Shown piece after piece: positions 1,430 to 19,464 of a DNA stretch of 64,000 nt. The stretch is from an uncultured Holophagales bacterium (GTDB lineage: Bacteria; Acidobacteriota; Thermoanaerobaculia; Multivoradales; UBA5704), in the NCBI GenBank assembly GCA_963842525.1, contig CAWJGT010000003.1:864001-928000 (forward strand). Reading direction: 5' to 3'. The notes beneath the pieces were generated by a model. The model was not told where the DNA came from. It made no database searches and saw only the letters and a program-made list of their open reading frames with translations. Position numbers and translations under genes: made by a program. Each line of letters opens with the position of its first letter. Positions within the stretch are counted from its first letter, which is position 1.

Positions 1430-2026
1430 ATGAAGCCAGCCCCGTTCGAGTACCTCGCGCCCGACTCTCTGGACGCTGCGCTGGACGCCATCGCCCAGCA
1501 TGGCGGCGATGCCAAGATCCTGGCCGGCGGGCAGAGCCTGATCCCGGTGATGAGCTTCCGGCTGGCTCAGCCCTCGATCCTCGTGGACCTCAACAAGATC
1601 TCCGAGCTCGGCTTCATCCGCCGTGGCGAGGACGGCGGCCTCTCGATCGGCGCCATGACCCGCCAGCGGCGGCTGGAGCGCGATCCTCTTGTGGCCGAGG
1701 CGCCGGCCCGCTCTTGCATCTTGCTGGCGGTCCAGGCGGACGGCCACGACCTCATGACGGTCGAGGCGCTCGCGCCGGGACCCGACCAGCTCCACCCCCA
1801 GCAGCAGGCCTTCTGGGAATGCCACGGCCTCCAGTGCGGCTTCTGCACCCCGGGCTTCCTCATGACCCTGGTGCCCTTTCTGGAGGAGAATTCCGACCCA
1901 TCCGAAGCCGAGATCCGCCAGGCCATTTCCGGCAATCTCTGCCGCTGCACGGGTTACCAGCACATCTTCGATGCGGTGAAGCTGGCCGCTGCACGGCGGC
2001 GATCTCTGGGAGTGGCCGGATGCAGG
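1430..2026 (+). pseudogene. In-frame deletion fusion of Mo-hydroxylase medium (FAD) subunit N-terminus and small [2Fe-2S] subunit C-terminus
   Basis: MKPAPFEY...AGGQSL...IGAMTRQ (CoxM/XdhB-like) joins at about 1700 to ARSCILLAVQADG...QCGFCTPG...GNLCRCTGY (CoxS-like). Reads through into the amidase. Confidence 0.8.
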
Positions 2027-3259
2027 ATGATCGACCTCGACCGCCTGGAGGCGCTCTTCGCCGAGCGCGAGCCCGAGGTCCGGGCCTTTCTCCCTGAGGA
2101 GGGGCGGTTCGAGCGCCTGCGCCGCGAGGCTGCGGCTCTCGAAGCCCGCTGGCCCGATCCGGAGCGCCGGCCCCCCCTCTTCGGAGTCCTCGTCGGCGTC
2201 AAGGACATCTTCCACGTGGACGGGTTCGAGACCGGCGGCGGCAGCCGGTTGCCGCCCGAGGTCCTTCGCGGCTCCGAAGCGGCGAGCGTGACGACGCTCC
2301 GGGAAGCCGGCGCCCTGATCCTGGGCAAGACCGTCTCCACCGAGTTCGCCTATTTCGCGCCCGGTCCGACCCGCAACCCCTGGAACCCGGAGCACACGCC
2401 GGGCGGATCGAGCAGCGGCTCGGCCGCCGCAGTGGGGGCGGGCCTCTGCCTCCTGGCGCTCGGCACCCAGACCCTCGGGTCGATCATCCGCCCCGCCGCA
2501 TTCTGCGGAGCCGTGGGGTACAAGCCCACCGGAGGACGGAGGATTCCGACGGACGGCGTGATCCCTCTGGCTCCCACGTTCGACCACGTCGGCCTCTTTG
2601 CGCCCGACGTTGCAGGTGTACGGCGCGCGGCGAGGTTGCTGTGCGAAGACTGGCGGCGGGATACGCCGAGCCGCACGCCCCGGCTGGCGGTGACGCAGGG
2701 ACCCTACATGTCCCGCGTCTCCGCGGAGGGTCTGGCCCATTTTCGCGCCGTCTGCGACCGGCTGGCTGCCGCCGGGTACGACCTGATACCCGTCCCCGCC
2801 ATGCCGGACTTCGAAGAGATCGTGGCGCGGCACTATCGGATCTTCGCGGCCGAGGCGGCGAGCGTCCACCGCGACTGGTTCGCGCGTTTCGGGGACCTCT
2901 ATGATCAACGGACCGCCGAGCTGATCCGTAGAGGACAGGGGATCTCGAACGCAGAGCTGGCGCGCGACCGCGCCGGCGTCGAGAGGCTCAAGGACGAGCT
3001 GACGGAGCTCATGGACGATTACCGCATCGACCTCTGGATCTCGCCGCCGGCCCTGGGGGCCGCCCCGCGCGGGCTCGACAGCACCGGCGATCCGGTGATG
3101 AATGTGCCCTGGACGCACGCCGGGATGCCCGCCATCGGCCTGCCGGCGGGCCGCAACAGCTCCGGCCTGCCGATGGGCCTCCAGGCCGCCGCGCGCTGGT
3201 GGGCCGACGAAGACCTGCTCGGGTGGGCGGAGGGGCTGGAGGCGGCGCTGCGCTCATGA
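2027..3259 (+). CDS. Amidase-signature family protein
   Basis: GVKDIF, GKTVSTEFA, TPGGSSSGSAAAV, GTQTLGSIIRPAAFCG; ATG at 2027 is in frame with the 1430 ORF. Confidence 0.9.
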   Translation: MIDLDRLEALFAEREPEVRAFLPEEGRFERLRREAAALEARWPDPERRPPLFGVLVGVKDIFHVDGFETGGGSRLPPEVLRGSEAASVTTLREAGALILGKTVSTEFAYFAPGPTRNPWNPEHTPGGSSSGSAAAVGAGLCLLALGTQTLGSIIRPAAFCGAVGYKPTGGRRIPTDGVIPLAPTFDHVGLFAPDVAGVRRAARLLCEDWRRDTPSRTPRLAVTQGPYMSRVSAEGLAHFRAVCDRLAAAGYDLIPVPAMPDFEEIVARHYRIFAAEAASVHRDWFARFGDLYDQRTAELIRRGQGISNAELARDRAGVERLKDELTELMDDYRIDLWISPPALGAAPRGLDSTGDPVMNVPWTHAGMPAIGLPAGRNSSGLPMGLQAAARWWADEDLLGWAEGLEAALRS

Positions 3260-7035: not shown

Positions 7036-8886
7036 TTGATCCCTCTCTCTCCTCCGGCGGACGTCAAGGCTTTCCTGGCTTCGACCCGGCTGTTCGGCGG
7101 GTTGGAGGAGGCCGCGCTCGACGAGGTTGCGGGCCACCTGGAGTGGCTGCTCGTTCCGGGTGGAGAGACGCTCTGTCGGCAGGGAGAGGAGGAGGATGGT
7201 CTCTATCTCGTCTTCAGCGGCCGGCTGGCGGTGGTCCGCGAGTTCGCCGGCGAGGAGGCCCTCCTGGGCGAGGTGGGCCGGGGGGACAGCGTCGGCGAGA
7301 TCTCGGTCCTGACCGGGAAGCCGCGCTCGGCGACGGTGCGCGCCCTCCGCGACGTGGTCGTCGCCCGGCTGTCCCGCGCGAGCGCCGAGCTCCTCCTGGG
7401 GAAGTACCCCGGCGTCCTCCTGGCGATCGTTCGCACCCTGGCGGGCCGGCTGGCGCCGTCGGAGCGCCCCGCGCGGAGCCGGAGCTGTCTCGCGCTGGCC
7501 GTCGCTCCCGTAGGCGATCTGCCGATTGCGAAGCTCGTGAGTGGCCTGGTCGAGTCGTTGTCAGCGCTCGGGCCGACCCTGCACCTGAGCGCTCGGGAAA
7601 TCGACAGCCGTTTCGGCGCCGGTGCCCGCCACTGTGCCGAGGGGAGCGCCGAGCACGGCCGCATGGCGGCGTGGATCAACGAGCAGGAAGCCAGAACCCG
7701 CTTCCTGGTCTACGAGGCGGACGCGGCGGCCTCCGCCTGGACGCGCCGCTGCCTGCGCCAGGCGGACCGCATCCTGGTCGTCGCCTCCGGAGAGGGGGAG
7801 CCGTCCCTCGGTCCGCTCGGGCCCGAGCTCGCCCGGCTGGAAGAGGACCAGGGCAGGCAGCTCGAAGAGCTGGTCCTGCTGCATGAGGAGCCGGGCCGGC
7901 CCCCGCGCGATACGGCACGCTGGCTGGCGCTCCACCCGTTCCTGCGCCATCACCATTTCCGCTTCCGGCCCGCCGACTTCGCACGGCTGGCCCGGTTCCT
8001 CGACGGCAGCGCCGTCGGCCTGGTCCTCGGGGGAGGCGGCGCACGGGGTTTCGCCCACATGGGCGTCCTCCGCGCTCTTGAAGAGGCGGGCATCCCGATC
8101 GACCGGATCGGCGGCACGAGCATGGGAGCAGTGCTCGCCGCCATGTATGCCCGCGGCTTTGACTGCTCCACCATGATCGATCTCACCCGCTGGGGGTGGT
8201 GCGAGCTGCAGCCGCACAAGGTCTACACCCTTCCCCTGATCTCGATCTGCTCCATGGCCAAGGCCGAAAAGATGCTGGACCGGTGGTATGGCGAGGATCG
8301 GATCGAGGATCTGTCGACGGACTTCTTCTGCGTGTCGACCAACCTCACCCGCACGGAGGTGGTCGTCCACCGGCAGGGGAGCCTGCGCAGGGCGGTCAAC
8401 GCCAGCATGACAATCCCGGGGATCACGCCGCCCATGCTCGGATCCGAGGGAGACCTGCTGGTGGACGGCGGGGTCCTCAACAATCTGCCGACCGACGTGA
8501 TGCGGGACCTGGGAGAGGGGCCGGTCATCGCTGTGGACGTCTCCGCGAAGCTCGACCTGCGGGCGGACCCGAGCTACACCGACTCCCCCAACCCCTGGCA
8601 GCTCCTGAGGAGCCGCTTCCGCCGCGCCGCCGCGTCCCGGCCGTTCCCGAACATCCTGCGCCTCATCCACCGCTCCGCCCTACTCGCGAGCGATGTGTAC
8701 GCGAAGCAGGCCAAGGGCGAGGTCGAGCTCTACCTCGACCTGCCGATGGACGGGTTCGACATGTTCAACATGGAGGCGCTCGACGATCTTGTGGAGATCG
8801 GTTATCAGTTCACGCGCGAGACGCTCGAAAAAACGCCCTGGAGACCGGAGAGCGCGGCTCCCTATGAAACCGGAGGACGGCAGTGA
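7036..8886 (+). CDS. cNMP-binding patatin-like phospholipase (NTE/RssA family)
   Basis: cNMP domain (VGEISVLTGKPRSATVRA) plus GGGGARG, GTSMG and DGG patatin motifs. Confidence 0.9.
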   Translation: MIPLSPPADVKAFLASTRLFGGLEEAALDEVAGHLEWLLVPGGETLCRQGEEEDGLYLVFSGRLAVVREFAGEEALLGEVGRGDSVGEISVLTGKPRSATVRALRDVVVARLSRASAELLLGKYPGVLLAIVRTLAGRLAPSERPARSRSCLALAVAPVGDLPIAKLVSGLVESLSALGPTLHLSAREIDSRFGAGARHCAEGSAEHGRMAAWINEQEARTRFLVYEADAAASAWTRRCLRQADRILVVASGEGEPSLGPLGPELARLEEDQGRQLEELVLLHEEPGRPPRDTARWLALHPFLRHHHFRFRPADFARLARFLDGSAVGLVLGGGGARGFAHMGVLRALEEAGIPIDRIGGTSMGAVLAAMYARGFDCSTMIDLTRWGWCELQPHKVYTLPLISICSMAKAEKMLDRWYGEDRIEDLSTDFFCVSTNLTRTEVVVHRQGSLRRAVNASMTIPGITPPMLGSEGDLLVDGGVLNNLPTDVMRDLGEGPVIAVDVSAKLDLRADPSYTDSPNPWQLLRSRFRRAAASRPFPNILRLIHRSALLASDVYAKQAKGEVELYLDLPMDGFDMFNMEALDDLVEIGYQFTRETLEKTPWRPESAAPYETGGRQ

Positions 8887-11253
8887 CAGCACAGCCCCTT
8901 GGCGAACGCATCAAGCGCAATGAAGACCCGCGCCTCCTGACCGGCCGGGCCCAGTTCATCGACGACATCGAGCTGCCGGAGATGGCGCATGTCGCCTTCC
9001 TGCGCAGCCCGTACGCGCATGCCCGCATCCTCAGCATCGACACGTCGCGGGTGCTCCAGCGCGAGGGCGTGATCGCGGTCTTCACGGCCGAGGATCTGGG
9101 CGACTACTGGCAGCCGGGGCCGCTGCTGGTGCCGCCGCCGCCGGTCGAGGGGATGGTTTTCAACCAGCGGACGCAGGTCCCGCTGGCCAACGGCAAGGTG
9201 CGCCATGTCGGCGAGCCTGTGGCACTGGTCGTGGCCGTGTCCCGCTACGTGGCCGAGGACGCGCTGGAGGACATCTACGTCGACTACGAGGCGCTGCCGG
9301 CCGTGGTGGAGCTCGAGAAGGCCCTGGAGCCCGGGGTGGCGCTGGTGCACGAGGACGTGGGCTCGAATATCGCAGCGTATGTGCCCCAGAAGAAGGGGGA
9401 CTACGAGGCGGCGCGGGCGCAGGCCGACGTGGTGATCCGCCGCCGCTTCTCCTACGACCGCGGCGCCGCGGCGGCGATCGAGAACCGTGGCGTCGTGGCG
9501 CAGTGGGACGCAGGGGTCCAGAAGCTGACGATCTGGGACACGACCCAGGCGCCGATCCCGGTGCGCAACGGCCTCGCGGCCATGCTCGGGCTCTCCGAGC
9601 ACAAGGTGCGGCTCGTGACGCCCTTCATCGGCGGCGGCTTCGGCCCCAAGATCATGATGTTCTATCCCGAGGAGGTGCTGATCCCCTGGCTCGCCCTCCG
9701 GCTCGAGCAGCCGGTCAAATGGATCGAGGACCGTGCCGAGAACTTCTTCGCCACGACCCAGGAGCGCGGCCAGATCCACGACGCGGAGATCGCGTTGACG
9801 CGCGACGGCCGCATCCTCGGGGTCAAGGACTCGTTCCTGCACGACACCGGCGCCTACGATCCCTACGGCCTCACCGTGCCGCTCAACAGCCAGTGCACGC
9901 TGATGGGACCTTACCGGGTGCCCAATTATTCGAGCGAGTTCAAAGCGATCTTCACCAACAAGACGATCGTCACGCCGTACCGCGGCGCCGGCCGCCAGCA
10001 CGGGGTCTTCGTGATCGAGCGGCTGATGGACCTCGCCGCTCGCGAGCTCGGGATCGACCGGACCGAGATCCGCCGGCGCAACTATCTGCGGCCGGACGAG
10101 TTCCCGCACGACCACGTGATCATTTATCAGGATTTCGCGCCCCTCTATTACGACAGCGGCAACTATGAGCCGGTGCTCGACCAGACATTGGAGCGAATCG
10201 GATACGATCGCTTCCTGAAGGAGGAGCAGCCGCGGCTGCGCGCCGAGGGCCGGCAGGTGGGGATCGGCGTCGTCTCCTACGTCGAAGGGACCGGCATCGG
10301 CCCGTTCGAAGGCGCCCGGGTCCAGGTCCAGACGAACGGCAAGGTCACCGCGGTCACCGGCATCGGCACGCAGGGGCAGGGGCACTTCACGGTCCTCGCC
10401 CAGGTCGCCGCGCAGCAGCTCGGCGTGGAAGTGGACAGATGTGGATGTCGTGACCGGCGACAGCGATCAGTTCCACTGGGGGACCGGCACTTTCGCCAGC
10501 CGCGGCGCCGTGGTGGCCGGCAACGCCGTGCACGAGGCGGCCAAGCTGGTGCGCGGAAAGGCGATCCGGCTCGCCTCCGAGAAGCTCGGAGTCGGCGAGG
10601 ACCGGATCGAGCTGGCGGAAGGCCAGGCGCGCGTGATGGGCGAGCCGGAGAAGTCGATCTCGCTCGGCGAGCTCGCCCGCTTGGCCAATCCGATGCGCGG
10701 CGCGGTCAAGCCGGGCACCGAGCCGGGCCTGGAGGCCACGAGCTATTTCGGCCCCCACCGCGGCGCCACGGCGAGCGGCTGCCACGCAATGATTTTAGAG
10801 ATCGATCCGGAGACGATGCAGATCGAGATCAAGAAATACGTCGTGGTCCACGATTGCGGCCGTGTGCTCAACCCGCTGATCGTCGACGGGCAGGTCCACG
10901 GCGGCGTAGCCCAGGGGCTCGGCAATTGCTGGTTCGAGCAGCTCGTCTACGACGACAACGGCCAGCTCCTGAACGCCTCCTTCATGGACTTCCTCCTCCC
11001 CACGGCCCTCGACGTGCCGCGCGTCGAGGTGGGCCACGAGGAGACCGTCTCACCGCTCAACGAGCTGGGCACCAAGGGAGCGGGCGAAGCCGGCGCCATC
11101 CCGGTCGGAGCGCTCTTTGCCCAGGCGGTCGAGGACGCGCTGGCGATCCCCGGCCTGGAGATCCTGGAGATCCCCCTGAAGCCCAGCCGGCTGTGGGAGA
11201 TCGTGATGGCCCGAACCGCAGGGCCGCCAGCGGCCATCGCTGCCGATGTCTGA
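8883..11253 (+). CDS. Xanthine dehydrogenase-family molybdopterin-binding large subunit (frameshift near 10435)
   Basis: EDPRLLTG, GGGFGPK, PYRGAGR, QGQGH, GTFASR, GQVHGG, KGAGE across two frames; lacks the AYxCSFR motif of true CO dehydrogenase. Confidence 0.9.
11078..11203 (+). repeat. Direct repeat, copy 1 (126 bp; 3' end of the Mo-hydroxylase large-subunit gene)
   Basis: Identical to 14601-14726 apart from one synonymous GCG/GCC difference. Confidence 0.95.
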
Positions 11254-11580: not shown

Positions 11581-11699
11581 GCTAAAAAGTTAAGCGAAAC
11601 CATTCTCGAAGAGGGCGTGCCATGCCTGGATCCTTGGTCCAAAAAGCTTGTGCCACATCGCTCTGTCTTCTCGCGGGAGCCACCAGCGCGGGTACGGCG

Positions 11700-14423
11700 A
11701 TGAGGTGTGCGGTGCTCCTCGGTGTTTCGGCGGCAGGGCTCTGGGCGGGGTGGCCTTCGCCCGGAGGGCCGGGCGACCTGGGGACGATCCGGGTGCAGCT
11801 GGCCGGAAACGTCCCAGGCGACCGATTCACGTCGGTGCGCTTCGAGAGCCTTCAGGGGACGACCGTCGTGGACAGCCGGATCGTCACGCCGAAACCCGTC
11901 ACCCTGCCGAGCGGAAGCACGGTCATGGAGGGCGACGCGCGCTTCGGGCTGCGCGCCGGTAAATACGCGGTCTCCGCCACGGCTATCGACGCAAACGGGC
12001 TTCCGGTGGCCGCCTGCATGTCGACGACGACCACGGCCAGCGTCGCCGCCGGTCGCACCACGGAGGTCACGCTAGGCGTTCTTTGCGTCGGAGCGGGCAG
12101 CGGCGCGACCACGAACCTGATCGAGGTCGTCCTTCCCCGCGAGAGTCCGCCGGTGATCACCGGCCTTTCGATCCAGCCGACGGGAACGATCGTGACGGGT
12201 CAGCCGGTCAACCTGGCGGTCTTCGCGGCAGCGTCGGCCGGAACCACTCCACTCGCGTATCGGTGGGCGGTGGCGGCGAGCCCGGCCCGCGTCCCGCCGA
12301 GCCTGACGCCGTACTCCGATCTGGCGAACTTCTCGGCGAGCGTGGCCGGTGACTACCGACTGACGGTCAGCGTCACGGACACCAGGGGGCAGATCGCCAC
12401 CGCGAATGTTCCCATTCACGTCACGCCTGGCCCCGAGCCGCCGCCGCCCCCGCTGGCGCTGTCCACCCAGCGCCCGTGCCACACGGGAAACGAAACGCTG
12501 GAAGAGTTCGCCGCGCGCTGCGACAAGGCGATGGGAGGCGTCAGCGTCCCAGAGTTCGATTGCGACGACTCCGACAACACCGAGCCGCCACGCCAGAAAG
12601 ACGGCCCCGGCAGCACGTGCAGCGCGCCGAACGTCCTGAACCACGAGTGCGATCACGGGAGCCACTTCCGCGTCCTTCACCGCAACGAGAGCAACGACGG
12701 CGTCTACATCGTCGCTCACTGTCGAAAGCGCGGACATTCGGGAAGCAACTACGGCGACATCGCCGTCATTCAGTACAACGCGAACAACGGCGCCACGTGC
12801 TACTATCAGGCGCTCGGGACTCTCCCCCACAAAGCGCCGGCGCCCAAGAACGGCACGGGCTCGTTCTGGCTGACCCCCGCAGGAACCGTCGCCGCCGATC
12901 CCTGTGTCTCGTGCCACGACAACGGCCCGTTCGTTCGCTCACCGTATCTCGCGCAGCTGGGCGAGGTGTGGCCGTTCTACGACGACGAGAACAATGGGTT
13001 GAACCCCAACAAGCCGAACCTGTCGGCGGCCGACAAAAACTACCTGCCGGGCACGCTGCAGGGCGACCTTTACGGCCCGTGGAACCAGTCCATGCCCTAC
13101 AGCTTCGTCGGGTTGAACTTCCAGGACTGGAAGGCGTACTCGATCAAGAGTCTCGACGGGACCTGCACCGCCTGTCACCGCATGGGAGCGAGCAAGTCGG
13201 CCGGCTTCTGGAACTCGGGCCGCGGCACCGCCATGGAGTTGGGGATCCTGGCGACCGCCACGACCCAGGCGAACAAGGTGGCGCACGGCACGCTCGACCC
13301 CGGGAACACCTCGCCCATCTGGATGACGCCCGGGCAGCTGAAGTTCAATCAGGCGGCGGCGGATTCGACGGACGCCATGCGGAAGTGTGCCGAGAGCATC
13401 GTGGCCGGCAAGCCGCTCGAGGGGTGCTCGGCTACGCTCCTCGCGCAGGGCGACACCTGTCCTCCGCCGCCCATCACGGTGAACGGCTCCACCGTCGCCA
13501 AGGATCCGACGAGCTGGCACGGTAGCGGCAAGACGCCGCTCGGCCAGCCGGACGGGCGCATTGGCTTCTACGCCTTCACCTCGCTTCACGGGCCGTTCTA
13601 CCAGAACTCGGCCTGGGAGGCGTACATGAACAAGCCCCCGGCGGTCGCCAACCCGGCCTGGGATCCGCCCAACCAGGCGCCCAACTTCAAAGGCACCTAC
13701 CTGCGCATCTACATCGAGCCGCCCGGTCAGTGGATGGTGGCGTGGGGGCTGGACGCGACCGACCTCCAGAACAACAACAACAACCCGCCGCCGCCGGGAG
13801 GGCCCGGGGGGGACATCGACGGCCTGGCGTTCGACGAGATCGACTCGGTCCCGGATCCCACCAAGTGCAACAACGGCTACACGTCGACCGGGGACATGAC
13901 CGGCACGGGCAGCCCCCTGAGCGCGACGATCGACAATCCGCAGGGAGTCCGCGCCGCCATCCTCACGGGCTTCATCGGCAACGTGTCCCGCCTCGGCGGC
14001 GCGGCGTCGGGAGGCGCGGCGGCGTCGGTCTTGCAGATCAAGGACACCGGCGGCGCGACGGTCCTCTCGCAGACGCACAACAACAGCCCCAATCCGGCGG
14101 TCAACCAGTGGTTCACGGCGGAATCGTGGGCGGGAGGGTGCACGGGCTGGCAGGCTTCCGCGCACTACGCCGTGCAACACAAGAAATCGACGAGCGACGT
14201 CGTGCTGGTGGACGCGGCCACGGCGCCGAACGTCTTCTGCTACATCGATGGCATCGCCGGCAACTGGGCGCAGTGGCAATCCGACGGAAAGGGCGGATCG
14301 ATCCAGCCCTACGCCCAGATCTACCAGGACGCCTCGACCGGCGTTCACTTGAAGGTGTGGCCGACCGGGTCGGAGTCGACCGGCGTGTCGGCCTATGCGA
14401 GCTGTCTCTACCTGAAGAAATGA
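11700..14423 (+). CDS. Large secreted Cys-rich protein with Ig/PKD-like region and two CxxCH heme-binding motifs
   Basis: Hydrophobic N-terminus; GDYRLTVSVTD PKD-like strand; CVSCH at about 12903 and CTACH at about 13164; uninterrupted ORF of about 900 aa. Confidence 0.75.
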   Translation: MRCAVLLGVSAAGLWAGWPSPGGPGDLGTIRVQLAGNVPGDRFTSVRFESLQGTTVVDSRIVTPKPVTLPSGSTVMEGDARFGLRAGKYAVSATAIDANGLPVAACMSTTTTASVAAGRTTEVTLGVLCVGAGSGATTNLIEVVLPRESPPVITGLSIQPTGTIVTGQPVNLAVFAAASAGTTPLAYRWAVAASPARVPPSLTPYSDLANFSASVAGDYRLTVSVTDTRGQIATANVPIHVTPGPEPPPPPLALSTQRPCHTGNETLEEFAARCDKAMGGVSVPEFDCDDSDNTEPPRQKDGPGSTCSAPNVLNHECDHGSHFRVLHRNESNDGVYIVAHCRKRGHSGSNYGDIAVIQYNANNGATCYYQALGTLPHKAPAPKNGTGSFWLTPAGTVAADPCVSCHDNGPFVRSPYLAQLGEVWPFYDDENNGLNPNKPNLSAADKNYLPGTLQGDLYGPWNQSMPYSFVGLNFQDWKAYSIKSLDGTCTACHRMGASKSAGFWNSGRGTAMELGILATATTQANKVAHGTLDPGNTSPIWMTPGQLKFNQAAADSTDAMRKCAESIVAGKPLEGCSATLLAQGDTCPPPPITVNGSTVAKDPTSWHGSGKTPLGQPDGRIGFYAFTSLHGPFYQNSAWEAYMNKPPAVANPAWDPPNQAPNFKGTYLRIYIEPPGQWMVAWGLDATDLQNNNNNPPPPGGPGGDIDGLAFDEIDSVPDPTKCNNGYTSTGDMTGTGSPLSATIDNPQGVRAAILTGFIGNVSRLGGAASGGAAASVLQIKDTGGATVLSQTHNNSPNPAVNQWFTAESWAGGCTGWQASAHYAVQHKKSTSDVVLVDAATAPNVFCYIDGIAGNWAQWQSDGKGGSIQPYAQIYQDASTGVHLKVWPTGSESTGVSAYASCLYLKK

Positions 14424-14444
14424 CCGTTCACCAACACGCGGATC

Positions 14445-14590
14445 GGGCCCGCCGCCGGCATGGCCCCGGGGTACAAACCCTGCGAGAGTGGTGGATTTCC
14501 TGCGTCCCTTCGGGACTTGGGGATGTTTGGGATGGCCTACCTGGGGTTGAAAACCCCAGGCTTCATGCCTGTGCCCCTTCGGGGCTCCGA
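14445..14590. repeat. REP-like palindromic cluster
   Basis: GTCCCTTCGGGAC, CCTGGGGTTGAAAACCCCAGG and GCCCCTTCGGGGC hairpins. Confidence 0.7.
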
Positions 14591-14600
14591 AGGCACCTTA

Positions 14601-14749
14601 GAGCGGGCGAAGCCGGCGCCATCCCGGTCGGAGCCCTCTTTGCCCAGGCGGTCGAGGACGCGCTGGCGATCCCCGGCCTGGAGATCCTGGAGATCCCCCT
14701 GAAGCCCAGCCGGCTGTGGGAGATCGCCGAGGCCGCGGCAGCGGATTGA
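14601..14749 (+). repeat. Direct repeat, copy 2: orphan 3' end of the large-subunit gene with a different tail (AEAAAAD*)
   Basis: 14601-14726 matches 11078-11203, then an alternative C-terminus and TGA. Confidence 0.92.
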
Positions 14750-14760
14750 AGGCCGTCGTA

Positions 14761-14789
14761 TTGATGGGCGGGCAGCGTTCAGATAGAAT
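14761..14789 (+). promoter_or_regulatory. Sigma70-type promoter of the RiPP locus
   Basis: TTGATG-N17-TAGAAT about 100 bp upstream of the precursor. Confidence 0.7.
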
Positions 14790-14890
14790 TCACTCATGAT
14801 AGCAATGCAGGCATGGCTTCTGGGAGAACGTGAGGGCTGCAAACCGGCGGTCCTGCCACGGCGCTCCGCCCCTTCTGAAAGGAGAACGCA

Positions 14891-15076
14891 GTGAAGAGAA
14901 AGGTTGGCAAGAAGCTGGGCCTGAGCAAGGAGACGCTCCGCACCCTGGACGAGCTGACTCTCCAGGCGGCGGCGGGCGGCGTCTTTACCGACCGCACCAA
15001 CGCGTGTTCGGTCTGTACCGCGTGCGCGAGCTGCTTCGACACCTGCATCGCGAACACCGAGGGGGTCTGCTGCTAG
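14891..15076 (+). CDS. lanA: Lanthipeptide-like RiPP precursor (30-aa leader + 31-aa Cys-rich core)
   Basis: RBS GAAAGGAGA + GTG start; leader LGLSKETLRTL (LxLxKx5L) ending AAAGG; core VFTDRTNACSVCTACASCFDTCIANTEGVCC; directly upstream of lanC genes. Confidence 0.88.
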   Translation: MKRKVGKKLGLSKETLRTLDELTLQAAAGGVFTDRTNACSVCTACASCFDTCIANTEGVCC

Positions 15077-15094
15077 CCAGCGCCCCGCATCTGT

Positions 15095-15128
15095 CCGGCC
15101 GCCAGACTGGAACCGCTCTGGCGGCCGG
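15095..15128 (+). terminator. 12-bp stem-loop after the precursor (attenuator or mRNA stabiliser)
   Basis: CCGGCCGCCAGA-N10-TCTGGCGGCCGG between precursor and lanC1. Confidence 0.65.
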
Positions 15129-15149
15129 GCTTCTAACCGCACACTGAAC

Positions 15150-16448
15150 ATGAGTCTGTGGCAGCCGCTTCTTTCCGCATCCCAGGCGGAGCAAGCCCTC
15201 GGGTTGGCGGAGGAGATCGCCCACGCCCTCGAAGCGCTTTCGCGCGACCGGCAGCAGCTCGCCGCAGACCCTGTCTCGCTGGCCAACGGCATGCCCGGCA
15301 GCATCCTCTTCTTCGCCTATCTTGACCAGGCGCGGCCGGAGGGCGGTTGGGGAGACCTGGCGGTCGAGGTCTTCGAGACGGCGATCGACGAGATGGCCGG
15401 CCTGCCGGCCGATCCGGGCCTCTATGCCGGATTCACGGGAATGGCCTGGGTTCACGAGCACCTGCAGGACTGGTTTCTCGATGGGAGCGACGACACAGGA
15501 GCGGACATTGCCGCTGCTGTGGAGAAGGCCCTGTCGGTTCCCTGGAGCGATTATGACCTCATCCAGGGCCTCGTCGGGATGGGCGTCTATGCTCTGGAGC
15601 GGCTGCCGCGGCCCGGGGCGGAACGGTGCCTGCGGCGCGTCGTGGCCCGCCTTTCCGAGCTGGCGGAGCTGCAGGCCGGCACTGCGGCCTGGCGGATCCC
15701 CGCCGACCTCGTCCCGCCGGACCGGCGCGACTGGTTTCCGCAAGGCTTCTTCTTCACGGGCGTCGCCCACGGGGCTGCCGGAGTGATCTCTCTGCTGTCC
15801 GCGGCACACGCCGCGGGGGTGGAGGCCCGGCCGCTGCTCGATGCGGCTGTCCGGTGGCTCCTCGCCCAGCGGTTGCCGCCGGGTGCAGGCTCGGCCTTTT
15901 CCTACGAGACCGCGCCCGAGGTCGTGCCGGGTGCGCCCTTCCCGCGTCCGACCCGTCTGGCTTGGTGCCACGGGGATCCTGGAATTTCGGCCGCTCTGCT
16001 CGGCGCCGCTCGGCGTGCCGGCGAGCCCGCCTGGGAGCGTGAGGCGCTCGGGCTGGCGCGAGCCGCCGCGGCGCGCAGCGGGTCCGAGAAGTCCATTGCC
16101 GACGCGGGCCTCTGCCACGGCAGCGGCGGGCTGCTTCACCTCTTCAACCGGATGTACCAGGCCACTGGAGACCCCGCTCTGGGGGACGCGGCCCGGTTCT
16201 GGTTCGACCGGACGCTCGCCCTGAGGCGCCCTGGCGAGGGGGTCGCCGGCTTCCTGTCCTGGGAGATCGACGCGCAGGGCAACTCCGGCGGCCTGGCCGC
16301 TCCGGGATTCCTCACGGGAGCCGCAGGCATCGGCCTCGCCCTCCTGGCCGCCGCGACGCCGGTCGAGCCGGCCTGGGACCGTGTGCTGCTGACCTCGATT
16401 CCGCCCCGGCAGGAGGCAGACCGCCCGTGCCCTCCTCAAGCCTCGTGA
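15150..16448 (+). CDS. lanC: LanC-like lanthionine cyclase 1
   Basis: YDLIQGLVG, GVAHGAAG, RLAWCHGDPG, GLCHGSGG, GFLTGAAG; Zn ligands and catalytic His present. Confidence 0.92.
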   Translation: MSLWQPLLSASQAEQALGLAEEIAHALEALSRDRQQLAADPVSLANGMPGSILFFAYLDQARPEGGWGDLAVEVFETAIDEMAGLPADPGLYAGFTGMAWVHEHLQDWFLDGSDDTGADIAAAVEKALSVPWSDYDLIQGLVGMGVYALERLPRPGAERCLRRVVARLSELAELQAGTAAWRIPADLVPPDRRDWFPQGFFFTGVAHGAAGVISLLSAAHAAGVEARPLLDAAVRWLLAQRLPPGAGSAFSYETAPEVVPGAPFPRPTRLAWCHGDPGISAALLGAARRAGEPAWEREALGLARAAAARSGSEKSIADAGLCHGSGGLLHLFNRMYQATGDPALGDAARFWFDRTLALRRPGEGVAGFLSWEIDAQGNSGGLAAPGFLTGAAGIGLALLAAATPVEPAWDRVLLTSIPPRQEADRPCPPQAS

Positions 16449-17761
16449 GCCAGGACCCTCCTGCTGCGGACTGGCGTCCCCTGCTCTCCGGCGACCTCGC
16501 GGAGCAGGCCCTCGCGGCAGTCGACCACATCGCCGCGGACCTCCGGCGCGCAGCCGTCTCCAGCGCTCCGCCTGAGCCTCTGCCGCTCAACCGGATGCGT
16601 TTCTCGCTGTCCGGCGGTCTGGCCGGCCAGGCGCTGTTTTTCGCCTACCTCGATCATGCCCGTCCCGGCGAGGGCCACGACGAGACCGCGGTGGAGCTGC
16701 TCGAGAAGGCTTTCGACGACCTGGGCGAGACCGAGGCGGCACCCGGGCTCTGCAGCGGTTTCACCGGGGTCGCCTGGACGGTCGAGCACCTCCGCGGCCG
16801 GCTGTTCGACGTCGACGGCGAGGATGCCGGCGCAGAGATTGCCGCCACCCATGCGCGCCTCCTCGACTGCACCCCCTGGCCGCTGGAATTCGATCTGATC
16901 AGTGGCCTCGTCGGCCATGGCATCTACGCCCTGGAGCGGATGCCGCGCCCGCTGGGACGCGAATGCCTCGAATTCACCCTGGCGCGGCTGGCGGAGAGCG
17001 CCGAGCGCGGACCCCGGGGCGCGGCGTGGTGGACGCCGCCGAGGCTGATGACGGGGCACAAACGAGACGAGGCACCTGAAGGTCTGTACGACCTGGGCAT
17101 CGCGCACGGCAACCCCGGGGTGATCGCCCTGCTCGGCGAGGCCTGCTCCCGCGGCGTGGCGGTGGAGGTGGCCCAGCCTCTGCTCGCGGAAGCGGTGGCC
17201 TGGCTGTTGGAGCAGCAGAATCCCCCGGGATCAGGTTCCCGCTTTCCTCGCTGGATCGCGCCTGGCGACGAGGCCGGGGAGACCCGCGTCGCCTGGTGCT
17301 ATGGCGATCTCGGGATCGCGGCGGCACTGCTGGGAGCTGCCCGCGGGGCGGGCGAGCCGGACTGGGAACGGACGGCTCGCGGTCTCGCCCGCGGCGCGGC
17401 GGCTCGCTCTTTCGAGAGCGCGGGTGCCATCGACGCGGGGCTCTGCCACGGCGCCGCCGGCAATGCCCACCTCTTCAACCGCCTGTTCCAGGCGACCGGT
17501 GATCCTCTTCTCGGCGAGGCCGCGCGGGCGTGGGCCGAGCGTGCGCTGAGCATGAGATGCCCAGGCGAGGGGATCGGTGGCTTCCTCAGTTGGGTCCCCA
17601 ATGCGCGCCTCGAGCGCGGGTGGCAGAGCGACCCCGGCTTTCTCACCGGCGCTGCGGGCATCGGGCTGGCCCTCCTCGCCGCCGCGACCCCCATCGAGCC
17701 TGCCTGGGACCGCGCGCTGCTGGTTTCGGTGCCGCCCCGGATCGTGATACGCAGCAGCTAG
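16427..17761 (+). CDS. lanC: LanC-like lanthionine cyclase 2
   Basis: FDLISGLVG, GIAHGNPG, RVAWCYGDLG, GLCHGAAG, GFLTGAAG. Confidence 0.92.
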   Translation: MPSSSLVSQDPPAADWRPLLSGDLAEQALAAVDHIAADLRRAAVSSAPPEPLPLNRMRFSLSGGLAGQALFFAYLDHARPGEGHDETAVELLEKAFDDLGETEAAPGLCSGFTGVAWTVEHLRGRLFDVDGEDAGAEIAATHARLLDCTPWPLEFDLISGLVGHGIYALERMPRPLGRECLEFTLARLAESAERGPRGAAWWTPPRLMTGHKRDEAPEGLYDLGIAHGNPGVIALLGEACSRGVAVEVAQPLLAEAVAWLLEQQNPPGSGSRFPRWIAPGDEAGETRVAWCYGDLGIAAALLGAARGAGEPDWERTARGLARGAAARSFESAGAIDAGLCHGAAGNAHLFNRLFQATGDPLLGEAARAWAERALSMRCPGEGIGGFLSWVPNARLERGWQSDPGFLTGAAGIGLALLAAATPIEPAWDRALLVSVPPRIVIRSS

Positions 17762-17920
17762 GCCGCGACCAGAATGCGTGCGACAGCCTCGTCGATGGCG
17801 TGTCCGGCCGCCTTCTGAAAGAAAGTGAAGCCGGGCGAAGGGTTCACCTCGAAGCAGTACCAGGTCCCCTCCGGGGTGCGGCGCAGGTCGATGCCGGCCA
17901 GGCTGACGCCCAGGGCGCGC
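17758..17920 (-). pseudogene. C-terminal remnant of a RimK-like ATP-grasp ligase
   Basis: Manual translation: RALGVSLAGIDLRRTPEGTWYCFEVNPSPGFTFFQKAAGHAIDEAVARILVAA*; upstream in-frame stop and no start codon. Confidence 0.75.
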
Positions 17921-17976
17921 CTGTTCCCATAGGCTCCGGGAAGGGAAATCTGTTACAACAATTGCGGCACGAGCCT

Positions 17977-19464
<1,488 letters not shown>

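Follow-up and report, generated by a model that had tools for sequence, protein, structure and literature searches.

A lanA-lanC1-lanC2 operon without a dehydratase gene in an uncultured Holophagales bacterium: a probable satellite of a class I lanthipeptide system scattered over the genome

Background

A three-gene operon of an uncultured Holophagales bacterium encodes a lanthipeptide precursor (lanA) and two paralogous LanC cyclases (lanC1 and lanC2). The operon lies in a 64-kb stretch of DNA (C3:864001-928000 of genome G000, where C3 is the contig), called the window below. We regard it as likely that the locus is a satellite, belonging to a class I lanthipeptide system with dispersed genes in which the dehydratase LanB would act in trans. 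The observed basis of this sequence-derived reading consists of gene content, catalytic residues, selection, the presence of a LanB orthologue and lineage-wide co-occurrence. The puzzle of an operon with cyclases and no dehydratase is in all likelihood solved by LanB in trans. What remains notable is that the architecture is dispersed throughout the lineage and that the cyclase pair is conserved.

Mining pipelines assign a class to a LanC locus when a dehydratase is encoded within a few genes of it; all other loci are dropped. The accessible part of the survey by Walker et al. 2020 (PMC7268733) counts 3052 LanC proteins without a dehydratase within seven genes, 1392 of which remained unexplained; such clusters were dropped there as "unclassified". 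As far as they are described in the accessible parts of PMC7268733 and PMC11251773, these LanC-only loci are similar to ours in that a candidate peptide accompanies a LanC and no dehydratase is nearby. What sets our locus apart is that its absent partner is identifiable and that genome-level co-occurrence links the locus to class I chemistry. A 2026 Nature paper (PMC13083261) deals with Acidobacteriota, Thermoanaerobaculia among them; it characterizes clusters of classes II and III, and its accessible text does not describe such an arrangement. The literature searched, with incomplete coverage and without supplements, did not contain an account of a dispersed class I system or of paired LanCs in Acidobacteriota.

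Results

The precursor and the two cyclases

The leader of the precursor, KLGLSKETLRTL, fits the pattern LxLxKx5L and terminates in GG. The peptide scores 25.4 bits with the NCBIfam model NF038153 (lant_leader_L1a), above the cut-off of 22, in agreement with the class I-type leader proposed in an earlier note on this DNA. Its core contains 7 Ser/Thr and 7 Cys residues, i.e., the precursor has both a class I leader and a Ser/Thr/Cys core.

The nearest locus is L018 of genome G001, where the orthologous precursor is 63% identical in amino acid sequence, with a ratio of nonsynonymous to synonymous substitution rates (dN/dS) of 0.25. The core of this orthologue contains six Ser/Thr and six Cys residues, and the differences include one Thr-to-Pro replacement paired with one Cys-to-Asn replacement. 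Such a paired loss is expected if each Cys partners a dehydrated residue.

The GG end of the leader implies a C39-type peptidase. Two Peptidase_C39 genes of G000, on contigs C9 and C30, consist of open frames of 798 and 939 aa, and neither is linked to the lanA-lanC1-lanC2 locus.

Both cyclases are full-length members of the LanC_like family (PF05147), covering profile positions 3-350 of 350 with 123.2 bits for LanC1 and 127.3 bits for LanC2 (gathering cut-off 23.2). The two proteins are 53% identical to each other. Both reading frames are open, and both proteins retain the AHG His, the WC(H/Y)G Cys and the CHG Cys-His, which align to the motifs of NisC (PDB 2G02). In LanC1, His207, Cys273 and Cys322-His323 align to the catalytic and zinc residues of NisC; LanC2 retains the AHG, WCYG and CHG motifs. 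Both are thus stand-alone LanC proteins with the zinc ligands and the catalytic His of class I enzymes, and the absence of frameshifts and of motif damage that had been noted earlier for the pair stands. As a separate observation, in a tandem LanC paralogue of a relative (L024:11716-12834) AYG replaces the catalytic AHG His.

Each cyclase is 69% identical to its L018 orthologue, with dN/dS of 0.28 for LanC1 and 0.29 for LanC2. The range of 0.25-0.29 for the three genes indicates purifying selection on the precursor and both cyclases; both LanC copies are kept by selection. Relaxed selection, which had been named beforehand as an outcome that would speak against a functional locus, was not seen in these three genes.

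The gene order in L018 is the same, lanA-lanC1-lanC2, with abutting genes. The flanks of L018, mapped by tblastn with 102 open reading frames (ORFs) from G001 loci, correspond to contig C19 of G000 and not to C3; therefore, the three-gene cassette is a conserved unit. The main LanB of G001 is on a contig other than that of the cassette. In two further loci, L019 and L083, lanA is followed by lanC1 and then by the contig end.

In a quick maximum-likelihood tree of LanC proteins, the LanC1 sequences of G000, L018 and L019 form a clade (support 99), as do the LanC2 sequences of G000 and L018 (support 100). Both clades are nested in a 12-row clade (support 96) with other tandem pairs. It follows from the structure of the two clades that the duplication predates the split of G000 and G001. 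It is plausible that each cyclase closes its own subset of rings. Modeling of a predicted C1/C2 heterodimer gave a score of 0.00, which is evidence neither for nor against such a complex.

Dehydratase genes in the genome

We searched the whole genome with hidden Markov models (HMMs) of the LanB N-terminal domain (PF04738), the LanB C-terminal domain (PF14028) and the LanM dehydratase domain (PF13575). PF04738 matches at C3:1392860-1394854 and C9:1526001-1527944; the sole matches of PF14028 and PF13575 are at C3:1391806-1392583 and C9:1010410-1011537, respectively. None of these matches is inside the window, as expected from the earlier note, which had recognized no LanB or LanM in the 64 kb.

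The genome search for lanB that the note had proposed gave one full-length orthologue with both domains. It is located at C3:1391749-1395047, about 510 kb downstream of the locus on the same contig. The conserved LanB of relatives is a protein of about 1100 aa, intact and with both domains. In G000 both PF04738 and PF14028 are present and the gene is split over many frames, which is discussed below. The gene (L066) is preceded by an RNB (RNase II-type) gene, as in G001 (L062) and G005 (L064). This adjacency, shared by three genomes, gives a natural-product gene a conserved place in the chromosome.

The second PF04738 match belongs to an 857-aa LanB-N-like protein (C9:1525543-1528116) without an elimination domain. 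Its gene is placed between a luciferase-like monooxygenase and a non-ribosomal peptide synthetase (NRPS) of more than 1900 aa (L067:4428-14001, i.e., C9:1524427-1534000). These neighbors suggest that it belongs to another pathway, and it was rejected as a trans dehydratase because of the NRPS context and the lack of the elimination domain. The protein may be an aminoacyl-tRNA-dependent tailoring enzyme of a non-ribosomal pathway.

Co-occurrence of LanB with the cyclase type and the leader

LanB matches at the strong level (E ≤ 1e-40) were obtained for 19 of 30 genomes sampled from the same order and for none of the other 11. The co-occurrence test included 14 of the 19 LanB-positive genomes and all 11 negative ones. 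A LanC1-like gene (E ≤ 1e-30) is present in 12 of the 14 positive genomes versus 0 of the 11 genomes without a strong LanB match, and an L1a leader (E ≤ 1e-4) in 10 of 14 versus 0 of 11. The negative genomes include G030, which belongs to the same genus and is 99% complete. G030 and G037 have no LanB match even at E ≤ 0.001, and G043 has weak LanB-N-like matches alone. The fact that the LanC1 type and the L1a leader were not found without LanB argues against a LanB-independent role.

We also surveyed 44 related LanC loci from other genomes, the closest of which are from Acidobacteriota, mostly Thermoanaerobaculia. An L1a-type precursor is nearby in 19 of the 44 loci, and six loci have two or three tandem LanC genes. 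LanB is inside the fetched stretch in 17 of 44, in several cases directly beside the LanC genes. For 23 loci the full 10-kb flanks were available; LanB is nearby in 11 of them and absent from 12. The genomes behind 26 of the 44 loci were tested for LanB (the other 18 loci were short, partial or from duplicate genomes), and every one of the 26 has a LanB match that exceeds the Pfam cut-off; the matches are mostly full-length, with E of about 1e-160 to 1e-179.

Dispersed layout in the genome and its relatives

The genome (9.95 Mb, 34 contigs, 68% GC) was searched with a leader HMM built from its own peptides (threshold E ≤ 3e-4). The search for other LxLxKx5L precursors, also proposed in the earlier note, was productive: 27 open frames have a leader of the form MKKxxKKLxLx(R/K)ETLRxL...GG and a Cys-rich hypervariable core. 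Only seven of these peptides are within 1 kb of a LanC gene, while the remaining 20 are at least 26 kb from any LanC or on LanC-free contigs.

There are 11 LanC-like loci in the genome: one LanM, one 752-aa open frame, which may be a fusion, and nine stand-alone LanCs. Three of the nine are split across frames in the assembly and at least 6 are intact.

The same pattern was observed in five relatives, each of which has 21-29 L1a matches spread over the chromosome, 10-15 LanC-like matches and 1-3 LanB matches. Therefore, the dispersed layout is a feature of the lineage and not an oddity of the window. That the present LanC locus is linked to class I chemistry through its leader model and through LanB co-occurrence across genomes suggests that many LanC-only loci of Acidobacteriota are satellites of a dispersed system.

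Two other places in the genome may be described here. An orphan paralogous L1a precursor (L068:6170-6352, i.e., C3:852169-852351) lies 26 kb upstream of the locus and shares the core motif CFDTC; it is placed between ferritin and convergent radical SAM genes, with no LanC nearby. On the minus strand of C23:365098-367085, two near-identical L1a precursors are followed by a single LanC, which is another satellite locus.

Evidence against the satellite reading

Several points weigh against the reading of the locus as a satellite. The LanB gene is unreadable as assembled, with at least seven frame changes detected by tblastn. Its DNA was aligned to that of the intact LanB of G001 (3323 nt, 75% identity), and the alignment contains 21 single-base insertions and 3 single-base deletions; this bias toward insertions is unexplained. 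The dN/dS of LanB relative to G001 is 0.40-0.46, compared with 0.30-0.33 between two intact orthologues. The raised value fits errors or misalignment and also fits recent relaxation. Reads were of limited help: a public soil run contained 6% of the sampled words of the LanB region, and its contigs were short and mostly less than 95% alike.

The co-occurrence has limits as well. Only three of the 11 LanB-negative genomes were screened below the strong threshold, the other eight at E ≤ 1e-40 only. Related genomes are non-independent samples, therefore the counts overstate the support. The best match to the cassette within the same genus is 51% identical, i.e., there is no close orthologue, and since genomes of the same genus do without one, the cassette is accessory. 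Finally, all steps of the mechanism proposed below are inferred.

Breaks in the LanB gene and in essential genes

Frame switches were mapped over the whole genome with a Viterbi codon-position model, which replaced a non-specific sliding-window count. The LanB region, with 17 same-strand frame switches in 4 kb, is among the most switch-dense patches of the genome. The 3-kb genes on either side of LanB are in a single frame, and orthologues elsewhere in G000 align in one frame.

Other patches with a switch every 100-300 nt are C11:22000-27700 (L070), C34:50000-63000 (L069) and six more (L071-L076). From these eight patches we took 47 frame segments, out of 64 stop-free segments of at least 240 nt, for a Pfam search. 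The patches hold partial domains of ATP synthase delta, gamma and alpha/beta subunits, and also of ParB, LptF/G, HPr kinase, PTS EIIA and ParA-type AAA_31 proteins. RapZ is split between two frames in such a patch. The sole ATP synthase gamma gene of the genome is split and has an in-frame TGA.

A free-living bacterium could not have such essential genes as pseudogenes; therefore, the patches are local assembly errors. The breaks in LanB are most likely assembly errors, too. LanB had at first been read as a real pseudogene, and this was dropped after the survey of patches, in which essential genes are equally broken. In the soil-run contigs over the LanB region, the sequence has one letter fewer than G000 at four places. 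No RNA run sharing words with the LanB region was found among the public runs listed. Because indel-dense patches break essential genes, pseudogene calls in this assembly are unsafe, and the local presence of such patches is a practical warning for its users.

Proposed mechanism and alternative explanations

According to the mechanism that we propose, the precursor would be recognized through its L1a leader (LxLxKx5L ... GG), which is shared across the lineage. The single LanB of the genome, encoded about 510 kb away beside the RNase II gene, would bind this leader, and would glutamylate up to 7 Ser/Thr residues of the core and carry out the elimination. The local LanC paralogues, which would be translationally coupled, would then join the 7 Cys thiols to these dehydro residues, LanC1 and LanC2 probably sharing out the rings. 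One of the two unlinked C39-peptidase ATP-binding cassette (ABC) transporters would cleave the leader after GG and export the peptide.

One alternative is that the locus is stranded: LanB would be a genuine recent pseudogene, and the intact precursor and LanC pair would be unproductive and heading to decay. The many frame changes in LanB and its slightly raised dN/dS can be read in this way; moreover, the RNB gene upstream has one frameshift, three other LanC genes of the genome are split across frames, and the lack of a LanB match in the 99% complete G030 means that loss of LanB occurs in the lineage. However, patches just as rich in indels interrupt the sole ATP synthase gamma gene as well as further housekeeping genes. 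Where LanB was not found, LanC1-like genes and L1a leaders are both lacking (0 of 11 each), whereas G000 retains all 27 open precursor frames and its intact stand-alone LanCs. Purifying selection on the precursor and both cyclases also disagrees with decay. We consider a stranded locus unlikely.

The remaining alternatives leave this LanB out. The first of them is that another dehydratase of the genome supplies the dehydro residues, namely the LanM (C9:1008988-1011537), the 752-aa LanC-fusion (C9:1264082) or the LanB-N-like protein (C9:1525543-1528116). All three genes exist and look intact, but the last lacks the elimination domain and is apparently part of a non-ribosomal pathway, and the LanM bears its own cyclase domain. 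LanM enzymes normally recognize their own leader type, and the partner with which the L1a leader co-occurs is the conserved full-length LanB; this source of dehydro residues is very improbable. The other, which the earlier note had put beside a LanB in trans, is that the thiol chemistry of the LanC pair is independent of any dehydratase: the pair would form thioethers directly, do other Cys chemistry or add thiols to an electrophile from a source other than LanB. The absence of a dehydratase from the operon and the window is what one would expect in that case. Yet the LanC subfamily and the leader follow LanB status (12 of 14 and 10 of 14 versus none of 11), LanB itself is encoded in 17 of the 44 homologous loci, the leader matches a class I model, the LanC catalytic residues are canonical, and the numbers of Ser/Thr and Cys in the core co-vary. 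LanB co-occurrence and the matched core counts disfavor such chemistry, and we give it the lowest probability of all, marginally below that of another dehydratase. Of the two ideas of the earlier note, it is the satellite using LanB in trans that is supported, by the orthologue found on the same contig, by the presence of LanB in all 26 relatives tested, by the 12 of 23 homologous loci with no LanB nearby and by the one-way co-occurrence.

Beyond this locus, a broader picture of Thermoanaerobaculia can be suggested tentatively, at slightly less than even chances: a genome-wide class I network in which one RNase II-adjacent LanB would dehydrate 20-30 scattered, leader-sharing, hypervariable precursors. 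Ring topology would be set by 5-9 dispersed substrate-dedicated LanCs, including coupled tandem pairs such as C1/C2, whose members would divide between them the rings of a single, heavily cross-linked peptide. If true, the network would correspond, within class I, to the prochlorosins, but with diversified cyclases, and it would account for a share of the discarded LanC-only loci. One LanB, interchangeable cyclases and a common leader would then make a natural combinatorial platform for polycyclic peptides, and C1/C2 would be a tractable case of two cyclases sharing one substrate.

Comparison with known systems

The system shares with nisin-type class I clusters the class I leader match, a core rich in Ser/Thr and Cys, NisC-like zinc LanCs and a two-domain LanB in the genome, although as assembled this gene is split over many frames. 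Unlike nisin-type clusters, it has LanB about 510 kb away, an unclustered transporter and protease, two cyclases per precursor, and an LxLxKx5L/GG leader instead of FNLD. The genes of a class I cluster are not in one locus here: LanB, transporter and protease are all outside the window.

In prochlorosin biosynthesis, one class II enzyme, ProcM, serves many scattered ProcA precursors. The likeness consists in dozens of scattered precursors with a shared leader and hypervariable cores, and in a single dehydrating enzyme. The difference is that our system has the class I division into LanB and LanC, with several dispersed LanC paralogues, some of them in tandem, whereas prochlorosins depend on one fused promiscuous LanM. 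The sole LanM of G000 is unlinked to the locus and the leader is of class I, therefore the operon does not belong to the prochlorosin type of class II and the likeness is one of layout alone.

The LxLxKx5L/GG leader has been described in class I precursors of Bacteroidetes in the accessible text of Walker et al. 2020 (PMC7268733). As far as that text goes, the Bacteroidetes lanthipeptides are alike in the LxLxKx5L leader, the GG cleavage logic and the expected C39-type processing (PMC7268733). They are unlike in that here the host belongs to Acidobacteriota (Thermoanaerobaculia) and that LanB and the C39 transporters are unlinked to the precursor and cyclases.

Layout of the locus

The features of the operon are listed in Table 1. 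The promoter-like site, the strong ribosome-binding site, the 61-aa precursor, the stem-loop and the overlapping LanC pair, all of them reported in the initial reading of the sequence, were recovered at the same positions.

Table 1. Features of the lanA-lanC1-lanC2 operon (positions in the window)
Feature	Position	Strand	Basis
Sigma-70-like promoter site TTGATG-N17-TAGAAT (predicted)	14761..14789	+	9/12 consensus matches; consensus match alone
Shine-Dalgarno-like AGGAG	14877..14881	+	9 nt 5' of the precursor GTG start; sequence inspection
lanA, class I lanthipeptide precursor, 61 aa	14891..15076	+	ORF and NF038153 match
Intergenic hairpin, main stem 14 bp	15093..15130	+	between lanA and lanC1
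lanC1, LanC cyclase, 432 aa	15150..16448	+	PF05147, E = 1.2e-35
lanC2, paralogous LanC cyclase, 444 aa	16427..17761	+	PF05147, E = 6.7e-37

The promoter-like site is the sole such site within 14400-18100, and shuffled sequences contain 0.1 on average. The hairpin between lanA and lanC1 has a minimum free energy of -34.5 kcal/mol (81-nt stretch folded; z = -2.9), and as good a folding was obtained in 0 of 200 shuffles. No T-run is present in the sequence 3' of the hairpin. It is likely to be an attenuator or a processing element. The lanC1 and lanC2 genes overlap by 22 nt.

According to the Pfam annotation of the genes at 1.4-27.8 kb, no kinase/lyase, transporter or protease is tied to the operon, in accordance with what had been said of it at the outset. 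The flanking genes have no link to peptide maturation: the 5' neighbor is a 933-aa PKD-like protein and the 3' neighbor is a convergent NCS1 permease. More distant genes of the window encode an amidase, AllG, a cyclase, a patatin, a molybdopterin enzyme and a CHAT-TPR protein.

Other observations in the window

The 933-aa protein (window 11622-14423) has a weak PKD-like match and two CxxCH motifs, and its gene ends 340 bp before the promoter. It is probably unrelated to the operon because it has no synteny with the orthologous cassette.

The gene of a MoCoBD_2 molybdopterin-enzyme large subunit (window 8868-11253) has a frame change near 10430, and the second MoCoBD_2 piece begins at profile position 93 of 283. 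This frame change is probably a single assembly indel. At window 1430-3259, a single ORF of 609 aa combines a partial FAD_binding_5 domain (positions 2-85 of 170) with Fer2_2 and a full amidase; this is an unusual fusion or else a collapse in the assembly.

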